The position numbers and the translations under genes are program-made. Below, piece by piece: positions 3,275 through 54,383 of a stretch of DNA of 64,000 bases. The stretch's first letter is position 1. Each line of letters starts with the position of its first letter. The DNA is from a virus, in the IMG/VR virus record IMGVR_UViG_3300045978_000375, positions 1 to 64,000 of that record. One strand, written 5' to 3'. The notes under the pieces were generated by a model. The model was not told where the DNA came from. It saw only the letters and a program-made list of their open reading frames with translations, and did not search any database.

Positions 3275-3721
3275 ATGTACGAAACTTCAGGATCGCGCGC
3301 CATCGCCGCGACGCAGTCTGCCCTCACTCTGATGGGCGGCACGGGCGTCGTCGTCTGTCTCAGGGAGTTTGCGCTCAGCACGTCCGGCGTGCCGAGCTCG
3401 GACCAGAACGTCAACGCGCAGCTCAGGCGCTTCACCGCCGCTGGCACCGGGACGACCCTGACGGCCGGCATCAAGTCCCCTGGCTCTCACCCGACGCCCG
3501 AGGTCACGCTACTCGGCAACCTCACCGCGGAACCGACCTACTCGGCCGGTTTCGTGATGGATCTCTACTTCAATCCGCGGAACAACCGCCCGTGGGTCGC
3601 CTACGACCAGCGCGGCGAGATCCTCGTCCCGCTCACCGCGAACAACGGCATCGGCTTTCAGTGCACCGCGGTCGGCGGCGGCGTCGGCAACTTCAATGCC
3701 GAGGCCGCCTGGGTGGAGTGA
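3275..3721 (+). CDS. hypothetical protein (beta-rich, possibly structural)
   Basis: 148 aa with GGAGAG upstream. Its stop overlaps the next ATG by 1 nt. No motif recognised. Confidence 0.5.
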   Translation: MYETSGSRAIAATQSALTLMGGTGVVVCLREFALSTSGVPSSDQNVNAQLRRFTAAGTGTTLTAGIKSPGSHPTPEVTLLGNLTAEPTYSAGFVMDLYFNPRNNRPWVAYDQRGEILVPLTANNGIGFQCTAVGGGVGNFNAEAAWVE

Positions 3722-4137
3722 TGACCTGGTACGCGACGAGCGAGAAAAACCGGCTTGGCAGCGAACCTGTCAAGCTACCGGCGCCCGGGCAGCGCGTGCT
3801 CGCGTGCGTCATTCGAGCTCGGCCATTGCCGACGAAGGCCCTGCTCGAAGCGTTCGAAGCCTGCGGAATTCCGGCAGGAGACGCTGCGGCGTTCATCCGA
3901 TCGGGACGCACCCCGGGCGATGTGAAGGAAGAGCTCGAGAAGGCCGGTCTCATCCAGCAGTACGCGTACTCGGCACTCTTCGAGTGCTTCCTCGTGGACG
4001 TGAAGGACCGGGAGAGGCCGCGAAGCCAGCAGGCCTCGGCCGAGGGCTGGGCGTGCGACGCGATGCCGCTCACGCCGATGTTCGACACGGTCCCGACGCA
4101 CTGGACGGACGAACTCCCGGAACGGTTCGAGCCGTGA
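3721..4137 (+). CDS. hypothetical protein, DUF551-like ends
   Basis: ATG at 3721 shares its A with the upstream TGA. The N-terminal W...LP...RVL pattern and the C-terminal THW..LP pattern resemble DUF551 phage proteins. This is a weak call. Confidence 0.45.
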   Translation: MTWYATSEKNRLGSEPVKLPAPGQRVLACVIRARPLPTKALLEAFEACGIPAGDAAAFIRSGRTPGDVKEELEKAGLIQQYAYSALFECFLVDVKDRERPRSQQASAEGWACDAMPLTPMFDTVPTHWTDELPERFEP

Positions 4138-4409
4138 GGGGCCTGCCCGGACTCAAGGCCCGCGGGTTCACGACCGAGATTGGGCCGGGTTCGGGAGCTG
4201 GGGTCGAGCACGAGACGTTCACCTGCTGCCACTGCGGCGGCGTCACCATGATTCCGCACCGCGCGACGCCCGAGCAGCTAGGGCGTTTCTGTCTCTCGTG
4301 CAATCAGATGACGTGCGTCGCCTGCGCGCCGTTCCCGGAGTGCCGGAGCTTCATGCGGCAGATCGATCAGCAGCTTGCGAGGGCGCGGTTGCTCAGGGCG
4401 TGCCCATAA
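4134..4409 (+). CDS. small Cys-rich (zinc-ribbon-like) protein
   Basis: GTG at 4134 overlaps the upstream stop (GTGA). Motifs CCHCGG...CLSCNQMTCVAC...C. Confidence 0.45.
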   Translation: MRGLPGLKARGFTTEIGPGSGAGVEHETFTCCHCGGVTMIPHRATPEQLGRFCLSCNQMTCVACAPFPECRSFMRQIDQQLARARLLRACP

Positions 4410-4431
4410 CTCCGAGCGGAACTGTGGCAAC

Positions 4432-5211
4432 ATGCTGATCCTCTCCTCCACGTCGGACATCGTCCGAATCGTCACCGATGCGTCTGGCGACATCGAGGTG
4501 CATGCCTCGTGGGCCGACAACAACGCGGGGACGATCACGCCCGGGCGCACGAACACTGCTTCGATCACGACGGCCACGACGACGACCGTCGTTGGCTCGC
4601 CGGCGAGCTCGCAGCAGCGTAACGTCCGGCACCTGAACATCACCAACAACCACGCCTCGCAAACGGTTGTGGTGACGGTCGAGCACACGGACGGGACCAA
4701 CGCCGAGACCTTGATGAAAGTCACGCTGCTCGCGGGCGAAAACCTCGTCTTCGACCAGGGTGGTGGTTGGACCCACTACGACCCGAACGGCGGGACCTAC
4801 GGGGGGCTGCCGGCAGCGACGCAGGCAGACATGGAGTCGGGGACGAGCCTGAACACCTTCGTCACGCCGGGGCGGCTGCACTTCCACCCCGCCGCGGCGA
4901 AGTTTTGGATCAAGGCCACGCCGGGTGGGACCATCAATGCGTCCTACAACGTCAGTGCGGAAGCGGACTCAACCGCTGGTGTCTGCGACATCACAATCGG
5001 AAACGACTTCAGCTCTGCCAACTACGCCGTGGTTGCGATGAGCTTGCGGGCGAATACGAACACGACAGTAACTGACGCCAAGAATACGGCAATCCGCAGT
5101 GCAACGCAGGCGGCTGGGGCCGTCTCAATCGAGACGTACGATCAGACTGCTACGAACTTCGCGGTCGAGGACCCGACTAGCTGGTACGCAGTCGGGTTTG
5201 GAGATCTGTAA
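4432..5211 (+). CDS. tail-fibre-like protein
   Basis: Internal ATG chosen (MLILSSTSD...). The central ATQADMESGTSLNTFVTPGRLHFHP resembles the conserved fibre collar motif. The C-terminal ~100 aa are visibly lower in GC. Confidence 0.5.
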   Translation: MLILSSTSDIVRIVTDASGDIEVHASWADNNAGTITPGRTNTASITTATTTTVVGSPASSQQRNVRHLNITNNHASQTVVVTVEHTDGTNAETLMKVTLLAGENLVFDQGGGWTHYDPNGGTYGGLPAATQADMESGTSLNTFVTPGRLHFHPAAAKFWIKATPGGTINASYNVSAEADSTAGVCDITIGNDFSSANYAVVAMSLRANTNTTVTDAKNTAIRSATQAAGAVSIETYDQTATNFAVEDPTSWYAVGFGDL

Positions 5212-5373
5212 ATGCTACGCAACTATGAGCAGATATTCGCGTGCGAGGCGTTTGGAGCACCGACGGCTCTTCCGGAGGGTGCGGCGCTGACCTTTACCGT
5301 GAATCTGTTGGTGGCCGACGTTGACCCGCCAAGTCACGCGACTGTCAGCATGTCGATCGAGCGGTGCGGGTGA
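5212..5373 (+). CDS. small hypothetical protein (53 aa, below the ORF-track cutoff)
   Basis: ATG immediately follows the TAA of the fibre-like gene (TAAATG). It fills an otherwise empty 166-bp gap, and its stop lies 4 nt before the next ATG. Confidence 0.3.
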   Translation: MLRNYEQIFACEAFGAPTALPEGAALTFTVNLLVADVDPPSHATVSMSIERCG

Positions 5374-5377
5374 ACAC

Positions 5378-5908
5378 ATGTCGGTCCCCGTGCAGAAGTT
5401 CGCGGTGCGGTGCGACGACGGCTCCGTGACGATCCTGGCGTTTGTGCTGCGCTCGCGCGGCCCCACCCCCCGCGGCGGAAAGGTCGATCCCTCTACCGGA
5501 GAATGGGTGCGTGAGCCAACCGACGAGAACGTCTTTTACGAGATCGAGCGCATCTTCGCAGCACCAGGCAAACCCCGCCCGATGGGATACCGTCCGATCA
5601 AGGACGCTGATGTTCCTGCGGATCGCACCTACCGCGATGCATGGACCGACGACGGTAAGGCGATCGTTCATGACATGGGCAAGGCGCGGGCGCTGCACGT
5701 CGCGCGCCTGCGGCGCCGCCGAGCGCCGAAGCTCGTCGAGCTCGACGGCCAGTGGATGCGAGCGATGGGGCAAGGCAACTCGCAAGAGGCGGCACGCGTC
5801 GAGGCTGAGCGCCAAGCCCTGCGCGACCTGCCGGTGACGCTCGAATTCGACAAGATCGACAGCGTCGACGACTTGAAGAAGGCCTGGCCCGAAAACCTGC
5901 CACGGTAA
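5378..5908 (+). CDS. hypothetical protein, fibre-assembly-like C-terminal motif
   Basis: Internal ATG chosen (MSVPVQKF...). The segment ...ELDGQWMRAMGQGNSQEAARVEAERQALRDLP... resembles motifs seen in phage fibre chaperones. Weak call. Confidence 0.4.
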   Translation: MSVPVQKFAVRCDDGSVTILAFVLRSRGPTPRGGKVDPSTGEWVREPTDENVFYEIERIFAAPGKPRPMGYRPIKDADVPADRTYRDAWTDDGKAIVHDMGKARALHVARLRRRRAPKLVELDGQWMRAMGQGNSQEAARVEAERQALRDLPVTLEFDKIDSVDDLKKAWPENLPR

Positions 5909-5912
5909 AACC

Positions 5913-6290
5913 TTGGCTGATCTCGCCTACAAGAGCGTCACGCTCGTCGAGCAGGCGCAGCCTGCGCACATTCGAGGGCACCAGCTCTGGCTGGGCACAG
6001 AAGGACCGGTCGAGCTCGCCGTTGGCCTGAACACAGACTCCGGTGTCTATACGGCGTACGCGCGTGTGATCCGCGACAACCCCCGGGGTGAGGGAACTCT
6101 CGCGCTGCCGGCTGGTGTGGCAGAGGGCACTGACTGGGCGGCTGCGCTCGACGCGGCCTGCGAGGCGTTCACAGCGCGGGCCGACAAGCCGGTAGGACAA
6201 CGCAAGTTCCGCGAGCTCGACATCCGCTCGACTGACCGCGCGGCGCTTCGCGTTGTCGCCGATAGGACGAGGCTTTCTCAGGTGCGCTGA
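5913..6290 (+). CDS. hypothetical protein
   Basis: 125 aa with a TTG start. Its stop overlaps the next ATG (TGATG). Confidence 0.4.
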   Translation: MADLAYKSVTLVEQAQPAHIRGHQLWLGTEGPVELAVGLNTDSGVYTAYARVIRDNPRGEGTLALPAGVAEGTDWAAALDAACEAFTARADKPVGQRKFRELDIRSTDRAALRVVADRTRLSQVR

Positions 6291-8803
6291 TGGCAATCAG
6301 CGCCCGCACAGCCATCGAGTACGGAGTCAGTGGTCAGAACCCGGCGGCGCAGTCGATCACGACTCAGGCCGGTGACAAAGCGGTCATCCTCTGCCAGTCG
6401 AATTGGGAGGGCAGCACATTCAGCACCACGTCGCTGGACGGCGATACTACGCCAAACAACGCGGCATCCGACGACGATGGTGGTTCGGGAGAATGCACCC
6501 ACGTCGTAGTCTGGCTGAATCCGCCGATCGGCGTGCTCTCGATCGACTGGGCATTCGGGGCCGTTCCGAGCGACGGCGCTGAGGTTTGGGCGGTCATCGT
6601 TGCGTGCGACGGAGACATTTCCGTCGTGGATATTGGCGCCGATGCCAGCGGCACCACGACGACGACGACGGAGAACTGCGCGGTTGGCGATCTTGCGGTC
6701 GCGGTAGGATTCGAGTTTGGTGGAGCAGCGTCGGTCGGCAGTGGCTACACGAGCGGCGACGCCATCGCCGCCGACGACGTATTCAACGGACAGCACGGGC
6801 GGCCGTACGCCAAGATCGTCTCGAGCGGCTCGACCATTACCGCGACCTCCCAGCTCGGGGTCGTGCAGGTCATCCTCCGCGAGACGATCACCGCGCCGCA
6901 GTCGATCCTTACGCCAATTGGCCCGCTGCGTCGGGCTCGGGCTGACAGCTCTGGAACGGAAGGCGACGTAAAGCAGTGGTTCGACCAAGCGTTTCTCCTC
7001 GCCAACTGGTTCGATGAGGAGTTTGCTGTCGCGGCGGCGCCTTCTCTCGCGACGTTTCTCCCCGACGAAGAGCTGCCTTTCATCCCACGGTTTCGCCGGA
7101 GCGAGCGCACCGCTCGATCTCTGGTTCACGGTTACGTAAACTTCCCAGAGATTCCACGCCCGCTGATCGTTGCGACTCAGGCGCCGCTTCCAGACATTGC
7201 GGCCGTCAGTCGGATCTTCGCTCCGCACCGCCATCCGGTGTCGGAGATCGTCACGACGACGGCGCAGCAGCAGCCTGGAGCTCTGGCCGATTCGCTACCA
7301 GCACGACCGGCCCAATCTGCACGCGCCCGACAGCTCGTAGAAGCGCACGTGCCACAGGCGGCGATTTCCCTGCCGTGGGTTGGGACTGAGAGCGCGAGCC
7401 GCGGTCAGCCCGTGCGCCCTCCGAGGTTCCGAGAGGACCCGGCGCCGCTCGGGACGATCGATCTCCCGCCCATCGACGCGGACATCTTTGCCCGAGGTCC
7501 TCGGAGCCGGCCGATCCGGCTCGACGCCGAACCCACGGCGAGCCCAACAATCGCCCTCCCGCCCATCAACCCCGACGACTTCCGTCGAGGCCCACCACCG
7601 CGACCGGTGCGGCTCCAAGCGGAGCCAACGTCGCCGGCGGTCATCAGACTTCCGCCCATCAACCCGGAGCCGCCGGCACTCCGGGGTCCCATGCGCCCCC
7701 ACCCGCCGGACCCGGAGTTCGCGCCCGCAACATTCGTCGCGCCGGTCGTCTACCTCGCGGTGCCCGACCTTTTGCCGCAGCGTGCGAGGCTCAGACCGCC
7801 GTCACCGGCCTTTCTCGATCCTCCGCCCATCGCGTTCGCGCAGGCTGCCGTCTCGGCGCTCGTGGACCTGCTGCCGCAGCGAGGGATGCCGGTGCGGCGC
7901 AGGGACGCCTTTTTGGACCCGTCCCCACGGGCTCAGATTGCGCTGCCGTGGGTGCCCGAGCAAGCGGCTCTCCGCGGCGTGGCCATCCGCCTTCCGCGGC
8001 TCGGTCCGGAACCGACGCCAGGGGCGGTCATCGCACTGCCGCCAGTCTCGTCCGAACTTCTGCTCCGCCCCGTCCTCGGCCGCCTTGGCCGCCCGCCTGA
8101 CGTCGACGCGCCCGCTGGGCTCGTGCGCGCGCTCGTGCTCGAGGAGCTGCTGCCAGAGCGCCGGCACGCCCAGCGCCTCGTGCGCGCGTTCGAGCAAGAA
8201 GCGCTCGCAACCGGCGCCCGTCCGTGGCTCGGCCCGGACGAGCTCGTCCAGCGGGTTCGGAGCTCGAGGGGGCGGCTGGCGCCTGATTCGGCGCTCTCCT
8301 CGGCCTTCGTGCCGGTCCAGCTAATCGCGCTCATCGCCGAAGAGCGAAACCCGCCGCATTACGTCGCACCACGGGCCCTCTTTCGGACACTGTGGATCAC
8401 GACCTACGTCCCGACCGGGCCGTTCCTGGTCGTCTTCCTGCCGCCCGCGCCAGAGCACCGCCGCGCCCTCCTACACTACCACCCGAGAAAGGGCCGCCTC
8501 TTGTCGCTCGAAGGAAGCTTCGCCGTGTGGGACGTGCAGCGCGGGCTCGCGCCCATCGATTACGACGTCGACGCTCGCCCCTGGCTCACCGGCACGGCCC
8601 TCCTCGCGACCTTCGTGCTCACGCAGGAACCGGGCGATCCGGTCGTCTACGGACCCGTGCAGCTCGTGCCAGGAGGACGCGACGTGAAGCTCACTGCGTC
8701 GGCCCCGCTCGGCGCGACGCCGGGCTTTTACCGCGTGCGAGCCGACTTCACCGACACCGTCGGCCGGCCGGGCTTCCAGTTCTTTCACATGCGGGTCACC
8801 TGA
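6290..8803 (+). CDS. large repeat-containing structural-type protein
   Basis: 837 aa. Has an N-terminal beta-rich domain, a central Pro/Arg-rich region of ~31-aa repeats, and a C-terminal Ig-like-looking domain. Confidence 0.6.
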   Translation: MAISARTAIEYGVSGQNPAAQSITTQAGDKAVILCQSNWEGSTFSTTSLDGDTTPNNAASDDDGGSGECTHVVVWLNPPIGVLSIDWAFGAVPSDGAEVWAVIVACDGDISVVDIGADASGTTTTTTENCAVGDLAVAVGFEFGGAASVGSGYTSGDAIAADDVFNGQHGRPYAKIVSSGSTITATSQLGVVQVILRETITAPQSILTPIGPLRRARADSSGTEGDVKQWFDQAFLLANWFDEEFAVAAAPSLATFLPDEELPFIPRFRRSERTARSLVHGYVNFPEIPRPLIVATQAPLPDIAAVSRIFAPHRHPVSEIVTTTAQQQPGALADSLPARPAQSARARQLVEAHVPQAAISLPWVGTESASRGQPVRPPRFREDPAPLGTIDLPPIDADIFARGPRSRPIRLDAEPTASPTIALPPINPDDFRRGPPPRPVRLQAEPTSPAVIRLPPINPEPPALRGPMRPHPPDPEFAPATFVAPVVYLAVPDLLPQRARLRPPSPAFLDPPPIAFAQAAVSALVDLLPQRGMPVRRRDAFLDPSPRAQIALPWVPEQAALRGVAIRLPRLGPEPTPGAVIALPPVSSELLLRPVLGRLGRPPDVDAPAGLVRALVLEELLPERRHAQRLVRAFEQEALATGARPWLGPDELVQRVRSSRGRLAPDSALSSAFVPVQLIALIAEERNPPHYVAPRALFRTLWITTYVPTGPFLVVFLPPAPEHRRALLHYHPRKGRLLSLEGSFAVWDVQRGLAPIDYDVDARPWLTGTALLATFVLTQEPGDPVVYGPVQLVPGGRDVKLTASAPLGATPGFYRVRADFTDTVGRPGFQFFHMRVT
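7364..8122 (+). repeat. in-frame ~93-bp (31-aa) Pro/Arg-rich repeats inside the 837-aa ORF
   Basis: Units look like I(D/A/R)LPPI(D/N)xDxFxRGPxxRPxRLxAEPTxxxx. There are four consecutive units, two DLLPQR...AFLDP units, then two IALP(W/P)V units. Confidence 0.7.
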
Positions 8804-8830
8804 TGCCGGGCCCGCCACGCTCTCCGGGGC

Positions 8831-9994
8831 GTGCCGAACCTCGCGAAGTTCACGATCAACGCGTCGGCGAGCTCGCCCGGCGGCTTCTCCGCGACCGTGA
8901 GCCAGGTCTTGACGATGGCGCTCGAGGGCGGGCCCGCGAACGTCGTGAACCGTTGGACCCTGCAGGTCTTCGACGCCGCCGACGCCTCATCCCCCCTGGC
9001 GTCGAAGAACGCACCCAGCCTCACGCTGGTCGGCGGGACGAGCGGGCAGAAGGTGGATGCCGCGACACCGGGCACGAGCATCACGACCACCATGCCGTCG
9101 AGCGGCGTGCACTCGTGGCTCGTCCGGTCGCTCGTAAACGGCGGCCTGAACGCCAAGGGCAAGGCCGACCCGGAATACGTCTACGAGCGGCTCGTCTACA
9201 TCCCGACCGGCTCGGCGCTCCGGAAGGTGATCGCCACCGAGGGGACGGCGGCGAGCTCGAGGGGATGGGCGGACGCGCAGAACGACCTCATTGACGCTGG
9301 GGCAGGGCCGCTCACAGCGCCGGGCGGCGCGAGTGATGCGAACAAGGTTGCGCAGGCGAATGGCTCCGGAACGAACCTCGGATATGCAGCGACCCTTCGC
9401 ATCGACAACAACTACTTCACGCTCGATGTGGCAGCGAGCCAGGGCGGCTTCTACCAGCAGACATCCGCGGCGGCTACTGACACCGCCCGGCGCCTGATGG
9501 AGTTCGCCGCGCAGAACGTGTCGGGGAACACAAACACGATCGGTGGAACTGTATTTGTCAGGGGGGGCGACACATTTGGCTCAGGTGGCACCCACCAGGG
9601 CGGCGATGCGATACTGCGTGGCGGCTGGGCGAATGGCGCATCCGGTACCCGGAGAGGCGGGCATGTGGTGTTGGGCGGCGGCACTGGCGCCACCAGCTAT
9701 GGGAATATCTACTTCGGCACGGACTATGCCGCTGGATACGATTTCAAGAGCATGGCGCGCGGGATTGTCGTGCAAAACGCGCTGGCTGCACCCACAGCCG
9801 ACCTGTCAGACGCCCACGCGTACTACAGTGACACGGGCCGGCCCACGTGGCGGTTCAATGGCACGACCCTGCGCCTTGACGGAACTTCTGGCAGTGCAAG
9901 CGCCGGAGGTTTGGCAAAGCCGAGCCTCTACGATGGCTACATCACGGTCACTATCGGTGGTTCAACGAAGAAGATCCCGTTTTACGCGAACTGA
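8831..9994 (+). CDS. tail-fibre / tailspike-like protein
   Basis: 387 aa with a GTG start. Has Gly-rich beta-helix-like repeats (GGDAILRGGWANGASGTRRGGHVVLGGG) and a C-terminal ITVTIGGSTKKIPFYAN typical of fibre ends. Confidence 0.5.
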   Translation: MPNLAKFTINASASSPGGFSATVSQVLTMALEGGPANVVNRWTLQVFDAADASSPLASKNAPSLTLVGGTSGQKVDAATPGTSITTTMPSSGVHSWLVRSLVNGGLNAKGKADPEYVYERLVYIPTGSALRKVIATEGTAASSRGWADAQNDLIDAGAGPLTAPGGASDANKVAQANGSGTNLGYAATLRIDNNYFTLDVAASQGGFYQQTSAAATDTARRLMEFAAQNVSGNTNTIGGTVFVRGGDTFGSGGTHQGGDAILRGGWANGASGTRRGGHVVLGGGTGATSYGNIYFGTDYAAGYDFKSMARGIVVQNALAAPTADLSDAHAYYSDTGRPTWRFNGTTLRLDGTSGSASAGGLAKPSLYDGYITVTIGGSTKKIPFYAN

Positions 9995-10039
9995 GGCAGG
10001 CGGGTCTGCTCTCCACCTCCCGGCCCAAGCTCCCTTGGC

Positions 10040-10393
10040 ATGCCCACGGCCGCCGAATTCCGACTCCACCAAGCCCGCCTGACCGGTCAGCGGGAGCAAC
10101 TCGCCTCATTCAGCCAGACGCTCCGAAAGAACCTCGCCGCCTGGCGGGCGCAGGAGGCGGAGCGTCACCCCATTTCCCGCGCTCTCTGCTTCTCCCTGAA
10201 CGAGGCTTGGATCGCGCGCATCGACTCCTTTCTCGCCGACACCGACGCGCTCGTGCAGGCGCTTGTCCAGCAAGAGTCGCTCATCACCGACCAGGCGCGA
10301 GCCGCCGAGGATGCCGAGCGCGCGCCACCAGCACCACCGCCCGAACCACCGGCGCCCCCTCAAAAGACCCCGACTAAACGGCGCCGCCGGTGA
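10040..10393 (+). CDS. hypothetical coiled-coil protein
   Basis: 117 aa. Its stop overlaps the portal GTG (GTGA). Confidence 0.4.
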   Translation: MPTAAEFRLHQARLTGQREQLASFSQTLRKNLAAWRAQEAERHPISRALCFSLNEAWIARIDSFLADTDALVQALVQQESLITDQARAAEDAERAPPAPPPEPPAPPQKTPTKRRRR

Positions 10394-11925
10394 GCTCCTT
10401 CCTCCCCTTCGTGCGCCAGGGCCGCGATGGCGAGCTCTGGTTTCGGACCGGAGGCCCTCTCACCGAGCGCTGGGTTGAAACGCCCAACCCGGTCCTCGAG
10501 CAGGTCCGGGCCTATTACGGCACGAGCCTCACGCCCGAGCTCATCGAGCGCGTGATCTGCATGGCCGACTCGGGCTTCATGCGCGACCTCACCGACCTCA
10601 TCTACGAGGCCTGCCGCGTCGACCCGCATTTTTCCATGTGCGACGGGAAACGCCTGCGAGCCGCGGCCAGCATCGAGCCGACCGTCGTCCCGGCGAGCGG
10701 CGACTACATCGACCCGGCCCTCGCGGCCACTTACGCCGATGCCGTACGCCAGCAGCTTACGTGGCTGCCGAACCTCCGGCAAACGCTCCTACGTTTCAAC
10801 TGGGGGCATAAATTCGGGCGCGCCGCGAGCGAGCTCGTCTGGGGCGAGGTGAAGTCTCCACGAGCGCCGTTCAAGTGGCGCATCGAGCAGGTGAACTGGA
10901 TCCATCCCCGCCGTCTCGCGTTCGGCCCCGACCGGGAGCTCCGCGTGCGCGATGACATGTGGGGCGGCTATGGCTTCGAGGCGAAGGGGCTCGCGCTGCG
11001 CGACTACCCCTACAAGTTCATCGGGTTTTTGCCGCAGCTCTTCAACGAGTACCCCGAGCGGGAGGGGTACGGCGTCCGCGGGCTCTACCACTCGTTCTTC
11101 AGGCGTTTCGGCTGGCGCGAGCAGCTCGTGCTCTGCGAGGTTTTCGGCCGGCCATGGAAGATGCTCGGCCCAAAGGATGGCGTCTCCGTCTCAAAAGAAA
11201 CCCTCGATGATGCCGCGCAGAAGATCGACCAGGCCGGTGCGAACGCAACCCTCGTGCGCCCGCCCGGCACCGAGCTCGATGTCGTCCAGCCCGTGCAAGG
11301 CGCCGGACAAGTGCACAAGGACGTGAAGCAGGAGGCGAACGATGAGATCTCGAAGCTCGTGCTCGGCGAGGTCCGAACCTCCGACGCAAAGCCCGGCGCG
11401 ATCGGTAGCCAGGGCGAAGAAGTCGCGCTCGAGGTGCTCTCGGAGGTGAAGGCGCAGGACTGCTGGAACCTCTCCGACATGCTGACCGAGGGCATCGCCG
11501 TGAATCTCATCAAGCTGAACTTCGGCGACGAGAACCTCGACCACTGCCCGCGGATCTCCCTGCCCTACGAGCCGCCGCCGAACCGCACTGAGGAGGTCGA
11601 GCGGACCGAAAAGGCCTTCTCGATTGGCGTGCCGCTCCTCGAGGACGAGGTCTACGAGCGGATCGGCTTCACCAAGCCGGAGCCCGGAGACGCGGTCGTA
11701 AAAAAGCAGGAGCCGCCGCCCATGCCGGGCCTCGGCGGCCCGCCAGGTGCGCCACGTCCAGCCGGCGCCACCGAACCCACCGAGGAGCCGCAGCTTTCCG
11801 CGCCGCCGTCCTTCGAGCCCTACGCGCGCGCCGCTCATGTGCTCGAGCTCGCCAGGTACGCGAGCGCCGGTGAGCGGCTCGTGCGGTCGGTCGTCCCGAA
11901 TCCCGAGCCGCCGGCGAGCGAATGA
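10390..11925 (+). CDS. portal protein, Mu gp29 (DUF935)-like
   Basis: 511 aa, immediately upstream of and coupled (ATGA) to a MuF gene. The N-terminal DSGFMRDLTDL...DPHF region is like Mu gp29 family portals. Confidence 0.8.
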   Translation: MSSFLPFVRQGRDGELWFRTGGPLTERWVETPNPVLEQVRAYYGTSLTPELIERVICMADSGFMRDLTDLIYEACRVDPHFSMCDGKRLRAAASIEPTVVPASGDYIDPALAATYADAVRQQLTWLPNLRQTLLRFNWGHKFGRAASELVWGEVKSPRAPFKWRIEQVNWIHPRRLAFGPDRELRVRDDMWGGYGFEAKGLALRDYPYKFIGFLPQLFNEYPEREGYGVRGLYHSFFRRFGWREQLVLCEVFGRPWKMLGPKDGVSVSKETLDDAAQKIDQAGANATLVRPPGTELDVVQPVQGAGQVHKDVKQEANDEISKLVLGEVRTSDAKPGAIGSQGEEVALEVLSEVKAQDCWNLSDMLTEGIAVNLIKLNFGDENLDHCPRISLPYEPPPNRTEEVERTEKAFSIGVPLLEDEVYERIGFTKPEPGDAVVKKQEPPPMPGLGGPPGAPRPAGATEPTEEPQLSAPPSFEPYARAAHVLELARYASAGERLVRSVVPNPEPPASE

Positions 11926-13646
11926 GGACCTCGGCCGAGGCGGCCGACGAGCTCGAGGCGTTCGGCCTGTTCTATGGCGCGCTCGCAGCGCGGCGGTACT
12001 ACGGCGAGCACGTCTGCCTCGCCGTCCACCCGGACGAGGCTAACGGCTCCGTCGAGGACCTGGTCGAGCGCGGTGTCGACCAGGGCGCCGCTATCACGGC
12101 CGGCTGGGCTGAGCAGATCCTCGACGCCGTGGACGACCGCTCCTCGGTGCAGTCGATCCTGACCGCACTCGGCGAGCTCGAGAGGCGCCTCGACCTGGAG
12201 GAGTTCGCCCGCGTTGTCGAGCAGCAGATCCTCCACGGCGCCATGCTCGGCGTCCTCGATTCCGAGTGGGAGCGCGAGCACGACGAGGACATCGCGCCGG
12301 CGCGCTTCGCCGAGCCGCAGCCGTTCTCGGGCGTGCCCTACGAGGACGCCCGGAGGCTCTTCGACGCGCGGCAGGTCCTACCACGGCCCGCCTTCGACGC
12401 GCTCGAGCAGGGGGCGAGGCGGCAGGCCTTCACGGTCGCCAGGATGGCGTCGGCGGAGATGCTGAACGTCACGAAGGCCGAGCTCGCCCGGCAGCTCGCG
12501 CACGCCCGTGACCGTCCCGTCGTTGGCCCGGACGGCGTCGCGCGGCGCGAGGGCTTCAACCTCAGGACCTTCCGGAAGTTCGCGAAGGAGCGGCTCGAGA
12601 GCGCCGGCTGGACGCCAGCCAATAAGTCGCACGTCGAGACTGTCTTTCGCACCAACGTGATCGGCGCGCTCGCGTCGGGGAGGTTCGTCGAGATGCGCCG
12701 CCCGGAGGTGCTGTCGGCACTGCCGTACTGGCAGATCCGTGGCGTCAGCGACTCACGAACGCGCCCCACGCATAAGGCCGCCTTCGGCATCATCCTCCCA
12801 GCGGATCACCCGTTCTGGCGCACAGCGTATCCGCCATTTGGTTACAATTGCCGCTGTGGTGTAACCGCTCGCTCGGCACGATGGCTCGAACGGTCTGGAA
12901 AGTCAATCGGGCCGGTGCCGAAGGACCTGCCGGATCCAGGCTTCGACTCGGGGACGGACCGGCTCATCAGTGTGCCGAGCGCCGCGCTCGAGCCCGCGCG
13001 GCCCGAGCAGCCAGCGGCGCCCAAGCGGCCGCCTTGGATGCACTCGCCCCCACCGCCGGAGCCGGTCACGGCCACCGAATTCGAGCGTAGCGCGACGCTG
13101 TATGAGCAGCGCGTAGTGGGTGCGGGAGAGTTCCTGAAGACGAGCGACCGCTTCGAGGTGCTCGAGAAGTACACGGACTCCGACTATCTGTCTATCAACA
13201 GATCCCTGCTGTTTACGGACGCTCCAGTTACCAACCAGACTCGGCAACAGGTCGCGGATCTACAGCATCTCCTCGCACAAGCGAGGGTCGCCGGACACGC
13301 GTTCGAGGGTGCCGTGTACCGCGGGGTAGCGGTACCACCAGAACTCCTCGCGCGCTGGGCTTCGGAAGAGGTCATCGAGTTCGCTGCGTTCACCTCGACG
13401 ACGACGGTCGAGCGCATGGCGTTGTTGTTTACGAGTCCGAATCGCGATGAGGTGCGGGTCCTCTTTCAGATTCGACAGCGGTCAGGCGTGCCGGTCGGCA
13501 CGGTATCGTCTACGCCTGGTGAATCCGAGATTCTCCTGCCATCCGGCAAGAGGTTTCGCCGAATTGGTCCGGTGCGCGTTGAAACACGTGGAAGTGCGAC
13601 GAACCCGAAAATCGTGAACGTCATCGATCTCGAGGAGCTCGATTAG
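11922..13646 (+). CDS. MuF / SPP1 gp7-like head morphogenesis protein fused to a C-terminal ADP-ribosyltransferase toxin domain
   Basis: MuF signature YWQIRGVSDSRTRPTHKAAFG...PPFGYNCRCG, followed by a Pro-rich linker. The ART motifs appear in order: YLSINRSL, AVYRGV (R), AFTSTT (STS-like), GESEILLP (ExE). Confidence 0.85.
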   Translation: MRTSAEAADELEAFGLFYGALAARRYYGEHVCLAVHPDEANGSVEDLVERGVDQGAAITAGWAEQILDAVDDRSSVQSILTALGELERRLDLEEFARVVEQQILHGAMLGVLDSEWEREHDEDIAPARFAEPQPFSGVPYEDARRLFDARQVLPRPAFDALEQGARRQAFTVARMASAEMLNVTKAELARQLAHARDRPVVGPDGVARREGFNLRTFRKFAKERLESAGWTPANKSHVETVFRTNVIGALASGRFVEMRRPEVLSALPYWQIRGVSDSRTRPTHKAAFGIILPADHPFWRTAYPPFGYNCRCGVTARSARWLERSGKSIGPVPKDLPDPGFDSGTDRLISVPSAALEPARPEQPAAPKRPPWMHSPPPPEPVTATEFERSATLYEQRVVGAGEFLKTSDRFEVLEKYTDSDYLSINRSLLFTDAPVTNQTRQQVADLQHLLAQARVAGHAFEGAVYRGVAVPPELLARWASEEVIEFAAFTSTTTVERMALLFTSPNRDEVRVLFQIRQRSGVPVGTVSSTPGESEILLPSGKRFRRIGPVRVETRGSATNPKIVNVIDLEELD

Positions 13647-13834
13647 CGAAGTTTCCCCGTCTCGAGCGCGTTCGACTCGAGAATTCGCGCCTCTTGCTTC
13701 GTGAGCAATCCATCCTGCACGAGCTCCCTCAAGAGTTTGCGCGTGAATGGCGCCGCCGCGAGCCTTCGTTCGACAGCGAGCTCACGCTCGGTTTCGAGCG
13801 GGTCCGTGGTCGCGTCGCCCGACTCCGTGGCCAT
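13643..13834 (-). CDS. small acidic helical protein, candidate immunity/antidote to the ART domain
   Basis: 63 aa and the only minus-strand ORF in the late operon. It is convergent with the MuF-ART gene and the two stop codons overlap. By hand count, 49 of 63 codons end in G/C. A promoter-like element sits directly upstream. Confidence 0.4.
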   Translation of the reverse strand: MATESGDATTDPLETERELAVERRLAAAPFTRKLLRELVQDGLLTKQEARILESNALETGKLR

Positions 13835-13840
13835 GCATGG

Positions 13841-13869
13841 ATCCTAACCAGGGACCGCGGCCGTTGCAA
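13841..13869 (-). promoter_or_regulatory. sigma70-like promoter for the small minus-strand ORF (leaderless)
   Basis: Read on the minus strand: TTGCAA, 17 nt, TAGGAT, 6 nt, ATG. Confidence 0.35.
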
Positions 13870-13914
13870 GCCATGGGGGTCACGTCACTTGCGCGGCGTC
13901 CAGATTGCCCGGCA

Positions 13915-15603
13915 ATGGCCGACCAGCGGCTCCTCCGGCTCATCCCGACGGGAAGCTTTCTCGGCGCCGTCTTCGGCGCTGCCGTGCCCATTCCGAAAGC
14001 GACGGCAACCGACCTCGAGGACGGTAAGCGCGTCTGGCTCCAGGCGGCCTATGAGGGGGAGTTCAAGGGCTATCGGATCCCGATGAAGCTCACCGCGGCC
14101 TTCTTCGCCGCGATGATCGCGAACCTCCGAGCGGACCCGCAATTCCGGGCCGGCGATGACGGCTACGGCGCGCAGCCGGTCGTGCGCATGGACTACGAGC
14201 ACGCCTCGGCGATGCCGCCGTCGGAGGGGTCCATTCCCGCGCAAGGTGCACCGGCGCCGGGCTGGGTGTGCGACATGGAGGTCCGAGCGGGCAAGGAGGG
14301 GAGGCTCGAGCTCTGGGCGCTTTGCGAGCTCGGCACTCAGCTCACCGAGCAGATCAAGGCCGGGGAGCAGCGCTTTCTGAGCATCGAGGCGCCGCTGAAG
14401 TCGAAGGACCCGGTCACCGGTGAGGACCGCGGCCCGAAGCTGAATGCACTCGCCGTCACGAATAGCCCCTTTCTCCGCGACCTCGAGCCCATGCGGATCG
14501 CTGCGTCGATGAGCGTCTGGGGGAAGGCAGAGACGACGGCCGAGCTCGTCGAAGGGATGCGCGGGATTCTCGAGATGCCCGAGACCGCGACGCCCGCCGA
14601 CATGAAGGACTACCTCGAGGCGATCGGCGTCGCCTACCAGAACGGCGTGCGCCCGCCCGGCTACCCCGACGGCCTCGGCGGCGTGCTCGACAGCGTTCGT
14701 CGCTTGGTCGGTCTGACAATGCTCGCCACCGGCGAACAGATCGTGGCGGCGGCGGGTCAGCAACTCGACACCGCGTCAGCTTCGGTGGCGACGACGCCGC
14801 TCCCGGCGGCTCAACCCCAAGGACCCGCTGCGATGACTGCATCTGCTACCCCCGACAAGCTCCGAGTCGCTCTCGTTGCCCTCTTCGGTTGCGTGGACCA
14901 CGACGACGTGATCCTCGCCGAGGCAACCAAAGCCAAGGGCGGGCTCGCCGCGCTCGGCGACCTCATGAAGAAGTACGGCGCGGCCGACCACGCGGACCTC
15001 GCCACGAAAGCGATGGCGGCCCGGGACGAGGCTGCCAAGACGGCCGAGTTTGCGACTAAGCTCGGCGAGGCCCTCGCCGCGCTCGACAGTGGCGTGCAGG
15101 AGGAGGCAAAGAAGGACACCGAGGCCGTGGCTGCCTCGTGTGGCTTCGCCGCCGAAAACAAGGGCGCGCGCACCGTCATCCTCTCGCAGCTGCTCGAAGC
15201 GCGTCGCGCCGCTCTCGGCATCGTAGCCGAAGAGAACGAGGGCAAGCTCGAGCTCTCCTTCGGCAAGCCGAACGGCGCGAAGCTCGAGCTCTTCTGGCAG
15301 AACTACCCGAAGCCGGACGCGAAGAAGGTCGTGCTCTCGACCAGCATCGTCGCCGGGCAAAACGGCGCTCAGCTCGGCGGCCCGCACACGGGCCTGCAGC
15401 AGAAGCCCGTCGGACAGCAGCCGCCCGCCGGCGCCGATCAGGAGCCCGAGCACATCGCGGCGCTCGCGAACTACCCGGGCCCGAACCCCATCGCAAAAGC
15501 CATCGCGTATCTCAGCGAGAAGCTGCCGGGGTTCAAGTCGCTCGACTGGGGCACGCAGAACTTCCGCGCGAACCAGTACGTGCTCACCGGAAAGGCAGCC
15601 TGA
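13915..15603 (+). CDS. Mu gpI-like prohead protease / scaffold
   Basis: Internal ATG chosen (MADQRLLRLIPTGSF...). The N-terminal region is like Mu-like prophage protein I and the C-terminal half is Ala/Glu-rich and scaffold-like. Its position between MuF and capsid fits. Confidence 0.65.
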   Translation: MADQRLLRLIPTGSFLGAVFGAAVPIPKATATDLEDGKRVWLQAAYEGEFKGYRIPMKLTAAFFAAMIANLRADPQFRAGDDGYGAQPVVRMDYEHASAMPPSEGSIPAQGAPAPGWVCDMEVRAGKEGRLELWALCELGTQLTEQIKAGEQRFLSIEAPLKSKDPVTGEDRGPKLNALAVTNSPFLRDLEPMRIAASMSVWGKAETTAELVEGMRGILEMPETATPADMKDYLEAIGVAYQNGVRPPGYPDGLGGVLDSVRRLVGLTMLATGEQIVAAAGQQLDTASASVATTPLPAAQPQGPAAMTASATPDKLRVALVALFGCVDHDDVILAEATKAKGGLAALGDLMKKYGAADHADLATKAMAARDEAAKTAEFATKLGEALAALDSGVQEEAKKDTEAVAASCGFAAENKGARTVILSQLLEARRAALGIVAEENEGKLELSFGKPNGAKLELFWQNYPKPDAKKVVLSTSIVAGQNGAQLGGPHTGLQQKPVGQQPPAGADQEPEHIAALANYPGPNPIAKAIAYLSEKLPGFKSLDWGTQNFRANQYVLTGKAA

Positions 15604-15630
15604 GGCGCCACCGGCGCGAAGGACATCACT

Positions 15631-16011
15631 ATGGAAACCACGCAACCCACCTGGTTCCGCAGCGCGAAGAACAAGACCGTCGCTGCCATCGTCGCTCAAC
15701 GCTTCGTCGATCCCGATGCGACCAACTTCCAGGGCATCCAGCTGCCTTCGGCCGTCACCACGGTTGGCTACGGCGTGACGAGTGAGGACATCCCGATCGA
15801 CGGGACGGGCTCCATCCAGATCGAGGGCATCGCCCAGGTCGTCTGCTCTGCGGCCATCGCACTCGGCGCACTCGTGCAGTCGGGCACCGACGGCCGCGCC
15901 GCGACCGCCGCGACGAACAGCGCCGTCCGAGGTCGCTGCGTGAAGGCTACGGCGGGCTCGGGGGAAGTCGCCGAAGTGGAACTCTGGAAAGGCCGCTTCA
16001 TCGCGCCGTGA
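15631..16011 (+). CDS. head decoration-like protein (DUF2190-like)
   Basis: 126 aa and Gly/Ala/Val-rich, lying between the protease and the major capsid. GAAGGA RBS. Confidence 0.4.
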   Translation: METTQPTWFRSAKNKTVAAIVAQRFVDPDATNFQGIQLPSAVTTVGYGVTSEDIPIDGTGSIQIEGIAQVVCSAAIALGALVQSGTDGRAATAATNSAVRGRCVKATAGSGEVAEVELWKGRFIAP

Positions 16012-16042
16012 GCGGCGCCAACTAGGACCGAAGGAAACGACC

Positions 16043-17170
16043 ATGAGCGCAAACATCGCCCTGAACAGCCGAGTCGACCGGCAGACCCTGATCGACGCCG
16101 CTTTGGGCCAGCTCCGGCAGTTCGTTCTGTCCGAGAATCTCCACGGACAGGACGGCAACCTCATCGGTCGCGCCGGCGAGACCATCACCCTCGCTGTGAT
16201 GCCGTCGGACACGAGCGACCAGCTCGCGGTCATCGACAACTACATCAGCGGCTATCGGAACTTCGGCTTCATGGCCGACATCGTGTCGCCCGTCGTGGTG
16301 GTGGACAAGGAAGCCGGCAAGAGGATCGACCGCTCGCTTGCGTCGGCCTTCACGGTGCACGAGACCGCGGTCGGCCGGCAGGGCCATATCAACGAGATTC
16401 AGGACGCGGCGAGCCGGGTGGACTATAAGACCCAGGAGTACGCGCTTGCGGCGTTCATCCCGTGGGGCTCGGAAAACGACGCGCTGCCGCAGTACCAGAT
16501 CCGCGAGGCGACGAGCACCATGCTCGCCGATCTCCTGCTGCTCTCGCGTGAGGTGAGGGTCTTCGACTTCCTCTCGACGCTCACGAACTGGAACACGAAC
16601 AACCGCACGTCGCTCACCACGAACTTCAAGTGGGACAACGGCTCGACGAAGGACCCCAGGCTGGACCTCCACACTCGCATGAAGGCGAGCGCCCAGCGCG
16701 TGACCGGGATCGCGATGAACCCGGACGTCGCCTACCACTTCCTCTCGGACAACAACGTGCGCGCCTACCTGAAGGCGACCATGGGCGACGACGCCCCGGT
16801 GCCGGACCTCGCTCGCACGATCGATGCGACGAACCATCAGCCCGAGACCATCAACATCGTCGGCTACCCGCCGATTTACATCTGCCCGGCAATGAAGCTC
16901 GTTTCCGGCGCTCTCACGTACGTACTCGCCGACGACGTGATCCTTTTCACGCGTCCGCCGACCAACGTCCCGACGAACATGTTCTCGGTCGCGACCTCCC
17001 TCACCTTCCGTCACCGCGGCAAGAGCGGCACCGGCTGGGTGACGAACGAGTACATCCCGAACGGCCGTGGACTGAACTCCGGCCGCATGCTCGAGACGGG
17101 TTTCGGCGAAGTCACCTTCTTTGGGTCAAATATTGCCGGCGGTCTCATCAAAGACGTGCTCAGCACCTGA
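16043..17170 (+). CDS. major capsid protein
   Basis: 375 aa with a good RBS (GAAGGAAA). It sits after the protease/scaffold and decoration-like genes, and a hairpin follows it. Confidence 0.7.
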   Translation: MSANIALNSRVDRQTLIDAALGQLRQFVLSENLHGQDGNLIGRAGETITLAVMPSDTSDQLAVIDNYISGYRNFGFMADIVSPVVVVDKEAGKRIDRSLASAFTVHETAVGRQGHINEIQDAASRVDYKTQEYALAAFIPWGSENDALPQYQIREATSTMLADLLLLSREVRVFDFLSTLTNWNTNNRTSLTTNFKWDNGSTKDPRLDLHTRMKASAQRVTGIAMNPDVAYHFLSDNNVRAYLKATMGDDAPVPDLARTIDATNHQPETINIVGYPPIYICPAMKLVSGALTYVLADDVILFTRPPTNVPTNMFSVATSLTFRHRGKSGTGWVTNEYIPNGRGLNSGRMLETGFGEVTFFGSNIAGGLIKDVLST

Positions 17171-47920: not shown

Positions 47921-48772
47921 ATGGCCATCGAGATCAAGCACCGATTCACAGGCACAGTCCTCTTCAAGAGCGAAACTGCCAAGAGCACGCGCGAAGCCGT
48001 GATCGAGGCGGTTTCCGCGGGCGCCAACCTCGCGCGCGCCGACCTCGCGGGCGCCAACCTCGCGGGCGCCAACCTCGCGGGCGCCGACCTCGCGGACGCC
48101 AACCTCGCGGGCGCCGACCTCGCGGACGCCAACCTCGCGGGCGCCAACCTCGCGGGCGCCAACCTCGCGCGCGCCGACCTCGCGGGCGCCGACCTCGCGG
48201 GCGCCGACCTCGCGGGCGCCAACCTCGCGCGCGCCGACCTCGCGGGCGCCGACCTCGCGGGCGCCGACCTCGCGGACGCCAACCTCGCGGGCGCCAACCT
48301 CGCGGGCGCCGACCTCGCGGGCGCCGACCTCGCGGGCGCCGACCTCGCGGGCGCCCGATCTCTGCCTGCGGGCACCGAAGCGAAGGACCCTCCAGAGCCC
48401 TACGATCGCAACCGAGCGATCGATTACGCCGCACGTGCAGTCAGGTATCGCGAGCGCCACCCGGACGTTCCAGTCGTCGAGCGGCTCGACAGCAGGATAC
48501 TCGAAGCCATCACGACCGGCGGCTGCACGCTGGAGATGGGTTCGTGGCACCAGTGCGAAACCACACATTGTCGTGCGGGCTGGGCGATCCACCTCGCAGG
48601 TGAGCCCGGATATGCGCTGGAGCGGCGGTACAGCGCGGAGCACGCAGGGCGGCTGATCTACCTCGTGAGCACGGGTCGTTGCCCGCATTTTTTCGCGACT
48701 AATGAGAGAGCGCTTGAGGATATCCGGCTCTGCGCCGCACGCGAGCAGCAACCCGAGGGAGCAAGCGCGTAG
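47921..48772 (+). CDS. pentapeptide-repeat protein with Cys/His C-terminal domain
   Basis: 283 aa with a GGAGAA RBS. Has 22 consecutive A(D/N)LA(G/R/D) pentapeptides, then a ~140-aa domain containing GSWHQCETTHCRAGW. Confidence 0.85.
   Translation: MAIEIKHRFTGTVLFKSETAKSTREAVIEAVSAGANLARADLAGANLAGANLAGADLADANLAGADLADANLAGANLAGANLARADLAGADLAGADLAGANLARADLAGADLAGADLADANLAGANLAGADLAGADLAGADLAGARSLPAGTEAKDPPEPYDRNRAIDYAARAVRYRERHPDVPVVERLDSRILEAITTGGCTLEMGSWHQCETTHCRAGWAIHLAGEPGYALERRYSAEHAGRLIYLVSTGRCPHFFATNERALEDIRLCAAREQQPEGASA
48023..48352 (+). repeat. 22 x 15-bp near-perfect tandem array (GCC RAC CTC GCG SRC)
   Basis: Units differ only at base 4 (A/G) and bases 13-14. The array is in frame within the pentapeptide-repeat gene. 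Confidence 0.9.
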
Positions 48773-52921: not shown

Positions 52922-53271
52922 ATGACACCCGCCTCCTTTGCCCCGCCGACGTCTGCGAGCGCTTCGGATGCTCGCTGCGAAAGGCACTCAAGATCATGCG
53001 CGAGGCCGGCGCGCGGAAGTCTGGCTCGATGGTCCGGCTCGAACCTGAGAAACTGGAGGCATGGTGGCTAGCGCAAAAGGCGACCGCTTCGGCTTCTGGC
53101 TCAGGGGACGGACCTGGTACACGTGCGATCCCGTCACCCGCCGCGACGTCTCGACCCGCTGCCGGGACCTTGAAGCTGCTCGAAGGTGGCGTGCGGCCCG
53201 TGAGCGTATTGCAGCCGATCCGGCAATCGCAGTCCAGGCGCTCGCGACGTTCGGGGACGAGTGCAGGATGA
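52918..53271 (+). CDS. xis: excisionase-like HTH protein
   Basis: GTG overlaps the upstream stop. LLCPADVCERFGCSLRKALKIMREAG...LEPEKLEAWW looks like an excisionase. The frame has no stop until 53271, so the last ~210 nt overlap int and do not look protein-like. Confidence 0.45.
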   Translation: MNDTRLLCPADVCERFGCSLRKALKIMREAGARKSGSMVRLEPEKLEAWWLAQKATASASGSGDGPGTRAIPSPAATSRPAAGTLKLLEGGVRPVSVLQPIRQSQSRRSRRSGTSAG

Positions 53272-54383
53272 TGCTCGACGCGCTCGAAGCCCTGGGCCGC
53301 CCGACGGCCGACTACGAGCACCGGCTCGGGCACTGGACCCGCGTGCTCGGCAACGACTGCCCGCTCTCCGATGTCGGCCCAGCCGCCGTCGACGCGTTTA
53401 TCGCGCAGCGCAGCGCCGAGGGGGTTACGAACCACACCATCTCGAAGGAGCTGAAGGCGCTCGTCAGGACGCTCCGGCAGGCGAAGCGTGCTGGCCGGTA
53501 CGCGGGGGCACTTGAGGTCCTGCGCCCGCTCGGCTTCACCGCCGGGTATGTGCCTCGGACACGCACCCTGACGCTCGTGGAGCTCCAGGTCCTGCTCGGC
53601 GAGCTCGAGCCGGAGGAGCGAGCGTTCGTCGTGCTGCTCGTCGCCTTTGGCCTGCGCCGGGGCGAGGCTGCCCGTGTGCTTCCCTGCGACCTCGATACTG
53701 CCAACTGGGTGGCCCGGGTGCGTGGGACGAAGACGGCCGGGGCTCTCCGGGACCTGCCCATCCTCGAGCCCTTCCGGCCGCTCGTCGAGGCGGTCCTGCC
53801 CTACCTGCCGCTCGGCGCCTGGGTGCGCTCGACCCAGTACACGCGGGTCCTCCTCCGGGCGGCGGCGCGCGCCAAGCTCGAGCCGGTGACGGCGAACGAC
53901 CTCCGCCGGACCCATGCAACGCTGCTCCGGAACTGGAAGGTGGACCGGGACACGGCCCGGACGCTGCTCGGGCACTCGCCGAAGTCGCAGCTGCTCGAGA
54001 CCGTCTACGACAAGCCGAGACCCCACGAGCTCGCTGCTCGCGCCGGCGACCTCTCCGCCCTCACGGTCGCCCTGGCCCCGATTGCAGAATCACTGCAGTC
54101 GGCACCAAAAACATCCACTTCTCTCGGAGAAACCCGCGGCAGTGAACCGCCATGGGGGCCGACCTATAGCCCCGCCGGGTCTGCCTCGCCAGTGTGTTCG
54201 CGGGGTTACGGGCCAGGAACTGGCCGGGAAGAGCCGGACACCAGCGCAGAATCACTGCAGTCGGCTGGCCCCGCGGCGTGGGCGCTTGAGTTCGCCCGTG
54301 AGGCGCTGAACGTCGAGCCGAAGGCGACCATCTTCCTTGGCACCGGCGTGATCCTCCGCCGCAAGAGGAGGGACGTTGGCTAA
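53061..54383 (+). CDS. int: tyrosine integrase with long C-terminal extension
   Basis: Catalytic motifs RRGEA, GTKT...R, DLRRTHAT and LLGHS...ETVYDK are present. About 110 aa follow the catalytic Tyr. Confidence 0.8.
   Translation: MVASAKGDRFGFWLRGRTWYTCDPVTRRDVSTRCRDLEAARRWRAARERIAADPAIAVQALATFGDECRMMLDALEALGRPTADYEHRLGHWTRVLGNDCPLSDVGPAAVDAFIAQRSAEGVTNHTISKELKALVRTLRQAKRAGRYAGALEVLRPLGFTAGYVPRTRTLTLVELQVLLGELEPEERAFVVLLVAFGLRRGEAARVLPCDLDTANWVARVRGTKTAGALRDLPILEPFRPLVEAVLPYLPLGAWVRSTQYTRVLLRAAARAKLEPVTANDLRRTHATLLRNWKVDRDTARTLLGHSPKSQLLETVYDKPRPHELAARAGDLSALTVALAPIAESLQSAPKTSTSLGETRGSEPPWGPTYSPAGSASPVCSRGYGPGTGREEPDTSAESLQSAGPAAWALEFAREALNVEPKATIFLGTGVILRRKRRDVG
54084..54103 (+). repeat. 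20-bp direct repeat, copy 1 (GCAGAATCACTGCAGTCGGC)
   Basis: Exact copy of 54246-54265. Lies in the 3' extension of int. Confidence 0.9.
54246..54265 (+). repeat. 20-bp direct repeat, copy 2
   Basis: Exact copy of 54084-54103, 162 bp downstream. Confidence 0.9.

Follow-up and report, generated by a model that had tools for sequence, protein, structure and literature searches.

Polymorphic toxins carried on the phage head protein MuF were defined by Jamet et al. in 2017, with putative ADP-ribosyltransferases (ARTs) making up 14% of 191 (PMC5576092). The same study describes gp7 as being bound to the portal with 1-2 copies per capsid and cites EFV, a MuF-ART from a prophage of Enterococcus faecalis V583, as toxic in yeast (PMC5576092). 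A further MuF-ART, Bxa from the Bacteroides stercoris phage PhiBxa, ADP-ribosylates arginines, kills bacteria, and has a pair of immunity proteins encoded next to it (PMC11699363). More generally, Alt/VIP2-family ARTs are often fused to MuF and predicted to be packaged in the head (Iyer 2022, PMC9503650). Here, we analyzed a gene of this design, termed MuF-ART, within a stretch of 64,000 nucleotides (nt) of viral DNA (positions 1 to 64,000 of the IMG/VR record IMGVR_UViG_3300045978_000375; hereafter, the window), being part of a 64.7-kilobase (kb) contig from an environmental metagenome. An earlier reading of the bare letters (hereafter, the original prediction) had proposed a MuF head protein fused to an R-S-E ART toxin domain; the background of MuF polymorphic toxins it had drawn from Jamet and co-workers is accurate, and the sister phages described below show such polymorphic tails. 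We found MuF-ART to be a divergent instance of an established design for loading an enzyme into the capsid and not a new type of system.

The predicted open reading frame (ORF) and all motifs quoted for it were found in place (Table 1). Its start codon overlaps the stop codon of the portal gene by 4 nt (ATGA), and an identical protein (P0001) is present on several metagenome contigs from several independent samples. Assignment of the N-terminal part to the MuF head proteins, as originally proposed, is agreed upon by Pfam (PF04233 Phage_Mu_F, 51.2 bits with a cut-off of 29.6, the Pfam core spanning amino acids (aa) 224-314), TIGRFAM (TIGR01641 phageSPP1_gp7, 40.5 with a cut-off of 39.65), and PHROG (phrog_220 “minor head protein and DNA pilot,” E 3.6e-41). 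This part contains the motif YWQIRGVSDSRTRPTHKAAFG at aa 269-289 and PPFGYNCRCG at aa 304-313, with H284 and the C310-R311-C312 motif representing invariant columns of the domain. In the full-length AlphaFold2 (AF2) model, the confident region covers ~aa 40-335, followed by a Pro-rich linker of low predicted local distance difference test (pLDDT) values. The Pro-rich stretch quoted earlier corresponds to aa 358-381 of this linker, and a similar one is found in all relatives with a C-terminal extension.

Table 1. Features of the MuF-ART locus and of the phage genome around it (window coordinates)
Feature	Position	Strand	Basis or remark
Mu-type portal protein, directly upstream	10390..11925	+	Pfam Portal_Mu, E 1.2e-44
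Full MuF-ART gene	11922..13646	+	574 aa
MuF / SPP1-gp7-type minor head protein domain, aa 1-357	11922..12992	+	Pfam, TIGRFAM, PHROG
Pro-rich linker, aa 358-384	12993..13073	+	81.5% GC
Predicted R-S-ExE mono-ADP-ribosyltransferase domain, aa 385-574	13074..13643	+	Pfam, profile, AF2, Foldseek
Catalytic Arg R467 (AVYRGV)	13320..13322	+	Invariant, 45-homologue alignment
S492, S-T-T (STS-type) motif	13395..13397	+	Invariant, 45-homologue alignment
ExE motif E534-S-E536	13521..13529	+	Both Glu invariant, 45-homologue alignment
Variable cassette	12980..13906		DNA homology gap compared with sister loci, lower GC
63-aa acidic ORF	13643..13834	-	Gene call in JGI and Logan records
Mu-like prohead protease/scaffold, downstream	13915..15603	+	PF10123 Mu-like_Pro_N on called gene
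Cement/decoration protein	15631-16011		Head module
Major capsid protein	16043-17170		Head module
Tyrosine integrase	53061..54383	+	Pfam Phage_integrase, 36.1 bits, cut-off 27.1

For the C-terminal domain, Pfam scored above cut-off with both PF01129 (ART; 28.6, cut-off 22.3) and PF03496 (ADPrib_exo_Tox; 27.6, cut-off 23.4). Compared as a single sequence with solved structures, it matched the Vis toxin (E 3.8e-6) and HopU1 (E 6e-4). When the ART domain alone served as query, a word-indexed protein search returned no relatives, and an exhaustive HMMER search was required; within 1.84 billion representative proteins it detected 274 ART relatives at E <= 0.001, the nearest being 45% identical, of which 45 were used to build an alignment and profile. 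This profile matched Vis (E 1e-30), Tre1 (E 5e-29), and ExoT (E 2e-23), and also HopU1, XopAI, Lmo0066, ExoS, SpvB, C2-I, VIP2, CDTa, iota, Certhrax, and C3. Besides the motif YTDSDYLSINRSL at aa 417-429, the domain carries AVYRGV (aa 464-469), AFTSTT (aa 489-494), and PGESEILLP (aa 532-540), giving the order of catalytic Arg, S-T-S-type motif, and (Q/E)xE motif with the same motifs as in Vis, HopU1, and Tre1. R467, S492, E534, and E536 are the sole invariant columns across the 45 homologues, with R467 being aligned to the Arg within the YRG motif of Vis, Tre1, and HopU1 and E534-S-E536 to the EAE of Vis and Tre1. The frame is open over the full length of the domain.

AF2 modeling of the ART domain from aa 381 (nt 13062), using the homologue alignment, gave a pLDDT of 97.3 and a predicted template modeling score (pTM) of 0.91. 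In the full-length model the ART half is poor because the alignment is shallow there, and the structural results given here rest on the domain-only model. Foldseek comparison with the PDB yielded 129 matches at E <= 0.001, the best 50 of which are all ADP-ribosyltransferase toxins or effectors; the top match is Vis (E 8.8e-12, template modeling (TM) score 0.69-0.72), and the best matches comprise Vis, CDTa, C2-I, Tre1, and VIP2. Among predicted viral structures (BFVD), a “phage head morphogenesis domain containing protein” ranks first, followed by portal fusions and T4-type Alt RNA polymerase ADP-ribosylases. Based on the model and the alignment, a mono-ADP-ribosyltransferase fold with the full R / S-T-x / E-x-E catalytic set is well supported for the C-terminal domain, and the toxin domain of the original prediction was recovered by Pfam, profile, AF2, and Foldseek, including the fold match. 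Its description as a C3/VIP2-type R-S-E triad has to be adjusted: the triad is present, while the catalytic domain is closer to the group of Vis, Tre1, ExoT, and HopU1 than it is to either C3 or VIP2. Arginine as the acceptor is suggested by the ExE motif together with the proximity to Vis, Tre1, and HopU1. A tblastn search of the ART domain against 50,697 GenBank phage records gave nothing at E <= 0.01, and a hidden Markov model (HMM) of the ART alignment run on the six-frame translation of the window detected its own gene only, with no second ART or orphan toxin cassette.

The lower GC content noted earlier for the toxin part was borne out, with 59.6% (GC at third codon positions (GC3) 0.695) for aa 385-574 compared with 69.5% (GC3 0.877) for aa 1-357. 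The GC3 of the ART falls within the lowest 3% of 190-codon windows taken from the remaining genes of the window, a set pre-filtered at GC3 >= 0.72, which introduces a slight bias into this test. At the DNA level, the portal and the MuF N-terminal domain are ~70% identical between this phage and its sister phages. In blastn comparisons of window 10,000-16,100 with four sister contigs (L003, L005, L010, and L011), homology beginning upstream in the portal gene ends at 12,967-12,998 and resumes at 13,907-14,094 in the protease gene. Because the DNA homology to the sister loci breaks at ~12,980 and returns at ~13,907, the linker, the C-terminal domain, and a short downstream stretch are shown to form a swapped cassette of lower GC content.

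A word-indexed search with the full protein recovered 137 relatives. P0002-P0004 share 77-79% identity with MuF-ART over aa 1-357 and none beyond. The tails of the relatives consist of an HExxH-containing domain, GNAT plus HExxH, a ~250-aa unnamed module plus ART, or nothing at all, with short MuF proteins devoid of an extension being common in the same clade. Pfam analysis of these tails assigned no family to the HExxH type or the unnamed module and gave sub-threshold matches only for GNAT. A Pfam ART was found in 13 of 120 relatives among those listed, and Phage_Mu_F is conversely the commonest recognized partner domain of the ART, present in 12 of the 79 nearest ART relatives scanned. The MuF C-terminus is swapped unusually freely in this lineage, and the swapping matches the behavior of polymorphic toxin cassettes.

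Several architectures in this MuF clade are worth recording in their own right. The ~250-aa module, which follows the MuF linker and precedes the ART in P0007, P0016, P0017, P0121, P0124, P0132, and P0133, is conserved with the pattern …GSNPGG[IV]Y.G.DG..RYVKFY…DNLVV…RIDNGGA… and has no Pfam match. An intein (PF14890) occurs in the MuF homologues P0006, P0010, P0018, P0037, and P0045; in P0006, a ~270-aa insertion is positioned at the invariant Cys of the MuF N-C-R-C motif (corresponding to Cys310, window ~nt 12849). Single-chain portal-MuF fusions of 800-990 aa (PF06074 plus PF04233) were found as P0052, P0054-P0056, P0062, and others, and similar portal-MuF fusions have been reported for Microbacterium phages.

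In comparison with the described MuF polymorphic toxins, including EFV, the locus shares the N-terminal PF04233 domain, the portal-adjacent gene position, a C-terminal domain varying among related phages with ART as a recurrent type, and an integrase encoded by the phage (PMC5576092). It differs from the typical case by a small downstream ORF lying on the opposite strand and having no homologues, instead of an immunity gene on the same strand, and by its GC-rich host lineage, whereas the described MuF toxins are mostly from Firmicutes. With Bxa it has in common the MuF-ART fusion within the head morphogenesis region and an N-terminal domain also found in proteins with other toxin domains; arginine ADP-ribosylation has been shown for Bxa and is predicted here (PMC11699363). 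Bxa is accompanied by BAH, a hydrolase of the ADP-ribosylhydrolase (ARH) family, and by the binding inhibitor Bsi, neither type being recognizable in the window. These comparisons with Bxa and EFV (Q838U8) were made by description, not by sequence.

The original prediction had treated the target and role of the toxin in this GC-rich lineage as unknown; the architecture as such is no novelty in GC-rich lineages, as MuF-VIP2 ART fusions had already been described in Microbacterium phages (PMC7302621). The MuF-like/VIP2 fusions of phages Percival, Goodman, and Johann resemble MuF-ART in their two-domain design, GC-rich hosts, and predicted status as virion components (PMC7302621). They differ in that these phages include strictly lytic ones and that their ART domains are not close relatives (tblastn null). 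T4 Alt, an ART packaged in the head and injected to modify RNA polymerase, follows the logic proposed here of capsid storage and delivery together with the DNA. Alt-type proteins were matched by Foldseek at E ~1e-9, a likeness on the level of the fold. Membership of the Alt sequence family was not found, with phrog_802 giving a sub-threshold match only (E 1.6e-4, no stretch passing alone). T4 Alt is not known as a MuF fusion and takes a separate route into the T4 head. The resemblance to T4 Alt is functional and not one of family membership. The best matches of the catalytic domain, Vis of Vibrio splendidus and the Serratia effector Tre1 (TM ~0.65-0.72, identity ~20-24%), share its R / STS / ExE arrangement and have delivery modules unrelated to MuF, in Tre1 a PAAR domain and the type VI secretion system. 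Tre1 is paired with the ARH-containing immunity protein Tri1. A pair of ART and ADP-ribosylhydrolase of the kind known as Tre1-Tri1, Bxa-BAH, or the Lmo0066 type was not found here, with no ARH or macrodomain family detected among 73 ORFs of the window.

The only further gene within the cassette is the acidic 63-aa ORF, convergent with the ART gene and with the two stop codons overlapping by 4 nt. Its GC content at codon positions 1/2/3 (0.67/0.45/0.77) is coding-like. Searched against 5.8e9 proteins it matched itself only, it has no counterpart beside the related ARTs of L003-L006, and scanning 13300-14300 for promoters revealed no sigma-70-type site in front of it, which is uninformative as the host promoter consensus may differ. 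A role as inhibitor or immunity protein makes it a candidate, as yet unproven. Pfam detected neither a Macro nor an ARH (ADP_ribosyl_GH) family in 73 ORFs of the window, and searching the six-frame translation of the window with the sister macrodomain by tblastn and HMM revealed no counterpart.

The sister cassettes do carry partner genes. In two of them a gene of 184-185 aa follows directly after the MuF-ART on the same strand (L003:7773-8330 and L005:5465-6019; 74% identical to each other) and weakly resembles the macrodomain of Thermus aquaticus DarG (PDB 5m31, E 0.004). Judged by this resemblance it probably encodes an antidote removing ADP-ribose, and its presence after the sister ARTs suggests that such ARTs are active enough to require a reversing enzyme. 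Next to an ART of the ExE type, one would have expected a hydrolase of the ARH type and not a macrodomain. Two further sister loci carry homologous acidic ORFs of 64-66 aa overlapping the stop codon of a MuF protein of the HExxH type (L010:5721-5921 and L011:8055-8249), likely representing the cognate immunity genes of an uncharacterized metallopeptidase-like MuF toxin. Such co-varying partner genes support a toxin-antidote logic within the lineage. Where the MuF tail consists of the unnamed module plus the ART type (L004 and L006), a shared gene lies just downstream on the minus strand (L004:8871-9236 and L006:1600-1791; 46% identity over 35 aa, E 1e-5), and in L004 five minus-strand genes separate MuF from the protease. 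As to the 63-aa ORF itself, one could imagine that it is genuinely expressed in the prophage state, counter to the direction of a silent late operon, and that its product binds and blocks the ART, thereby rendering the lysogen immune to the ART ejected by superinfecting kin phages. We consider this very unlikely; if true, the MuF-toxin cassette would be a toxin/immunity-based device for kin recognition or superinfection exclusion between phages, and the ORF would found a new inhibitor family.

Taking these data together, we propose the following course of events. As a minor head component, the MuF domain would bring the fusion protein into the procapsid, and MuF-ART would exit the capsid together with the DNA at infection. 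In the cytoplasm of the new host, the ART would then use nicotinamide adenine dinucleotide (NAD+) for the mono-ADP-ribosylation of arginines in host proteins, with the outcome of the host being shut down or reprogrammed as by packaged T4 Alt, and of toxicity if the target is essential. To this whole chain of a capsid-loaded, arginine-specific ART being ejected with the DNA and modifying host proteins, we assign a probability of roughly 0.6. Three points weigh against it. Packaging, ejection, activity, target, and toxicity are all inferred for MuF-ART; the arginine specificity is deduced from the motif and from relatives sharing only 20-24% identity; and the lack of a recognizable immunity gene is unexpected should the domain be strongly toxic during late protein synthesis in a temperate phage.

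Bxa as the best-studied MuF-ART acts on epithelial cells once released and kills bacteria when expressed inside (PMC11699363). A comparable exotoxin or fitness factor, produced late, freed at lysis of the lysogen and acting on neighboring bacteria or on the eukaryotic host of the bacterium with no ejection involved, would fit the integrase found in the window, as a population of lysogens could profit from it. We regard such a role as unlikely, considering that MuF and ART are the only domains found, with neither a signal peptide nor a domain for cell entry detected, that ARTs require cytoplasmic NAD+ and cytoplasmic targets, that the source is an environmental metagenome, and that MuF-VIP2 fusions exist in strictly lytic Microbacterium phages (PMC7302621), to which a model of lysogen benefit is inapplicable. 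The ART might instead work late in the producing cell on host or phage proteins at assembly, with MuF providing co-expression and localization at the portal and no delivery taking place. Location in the late structural operon with translational coupling to the portal would suit this, and an absent immunity gene would do no harm in a cell about to lyse; the exchange of unrelated C-terminal domains on one scaffold, however, suits an interchangeable effector better than a role in assembly, and the extension-less MuF proteins common in the clade argue for a domain dispensable for it, rendering this explanation quite unlikely.

DarG strips ADP-ribose from DNA, with arginine-linked ADP-ribose normally being removed by hydrolases of the ARH/DraG type. 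The DarG-like gene behind the sister ARTs is therefore a point in favor of an ART-fold enzyme with a different chemistry, i.e., ADP-ribosylation of DNA or RNA, or mainly a depletion of NAD+ by glycohydrolase activity, and enzymes of the ART superfamily can indeed be NADases (PMC9503650). This macrodomain gene, however, adjoins a different ART being ~35-40% identical, with none present in the window, both Glu of the ExE motif are invariant, and the proteins matched best by both sequence and structure, Tre1 and Vis (the latter solved with agmatine), are protein ARTs specific for arginine, so that we assign a low probability to any such chemistry. A decaying, inactive remnant carried along as passenger sequence might show the lower GC content and the missing partner immunity gene, but would hardly be expected to retain four intact catalytic residues, a fully open frame, and an AF2 pLDDT of 97.3, nor to recur as an identical protein in several independent samples; we consider this extremely improbable.

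MuF-ART is also to be seen in its genomic setting. The gene sits right after the portal within a Mu-type head module, as MuF toxins do. The start of the protease gene in this module follows the JGI call (window 13915), the longest ORF beginning at 13747. The remaining genes of the window include those for terminase, Baseplate_J, Mu gp48, a tape-measure-like protein, DnaB, ParB, RadC, and a PD-(D/E)XK nuclease. On a second contig (L012), the DnaB-ParB-RadC region is followed by a DAM-like methylase gene and then by the genes preceding the terminase; from this gene order it follows that the genome closes at ~64.4 kb without host flanks. The window thus represents an almost complete phage genome. 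Its tyrosine integrase gives an indication, by sequence, of a temperate lifestyle, and with both integrase and ParB being encoded, integration and plasmid-like maintenance are both conceivable. Within the window no repressor was identified, a scan for transfer RNA genes found none, and PADLOC returned no defense-system match. Searching the genome collection for the host yielded no more than three MuF matches, all distant and located in metagenome-assembled genomes of Parcubacteria and Myxococcota.

Elsewhere in the window, ~8 genes occupy the unusual site between terminase and portal (3275-10393), encoding among others two Gly/Ala/Thr-rich proteins of 837 and 387 aa, with no Pfam match for any of these genes; the equivalent block of L003 shows a faint pectate-lyase-like match. 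This suggests that the block may hold fiber or depolymerase genes. A pentapeptide-repeat protein (E 5e-31) is encoded at 47921-48772 in the early/regulatory region, and an ORF at 108-350, near the window start, matches a GNAT-like phage domain over the C-terminal portion of the latter (E 1.7e-13).

Knowledge of the class as such is left unchanged by this finding, which contributes a divergent MuF-ART encoded by an uncultured, GC-rich phage lineage with a Mu-type head. It is unusual solely in that no immunity gene is recognizable and that an ORF on the reverse strand, devoid of homologues, takes its place. In conjunction with the sister loci, comprising an ART with a macrodomain gene, an ART with the 63-aa ORF, and the HExxH type with a conserved ORF of 64-66 aa, it forms a natural comparison series for how MuF toxins are neutralized and whether they are ejected.

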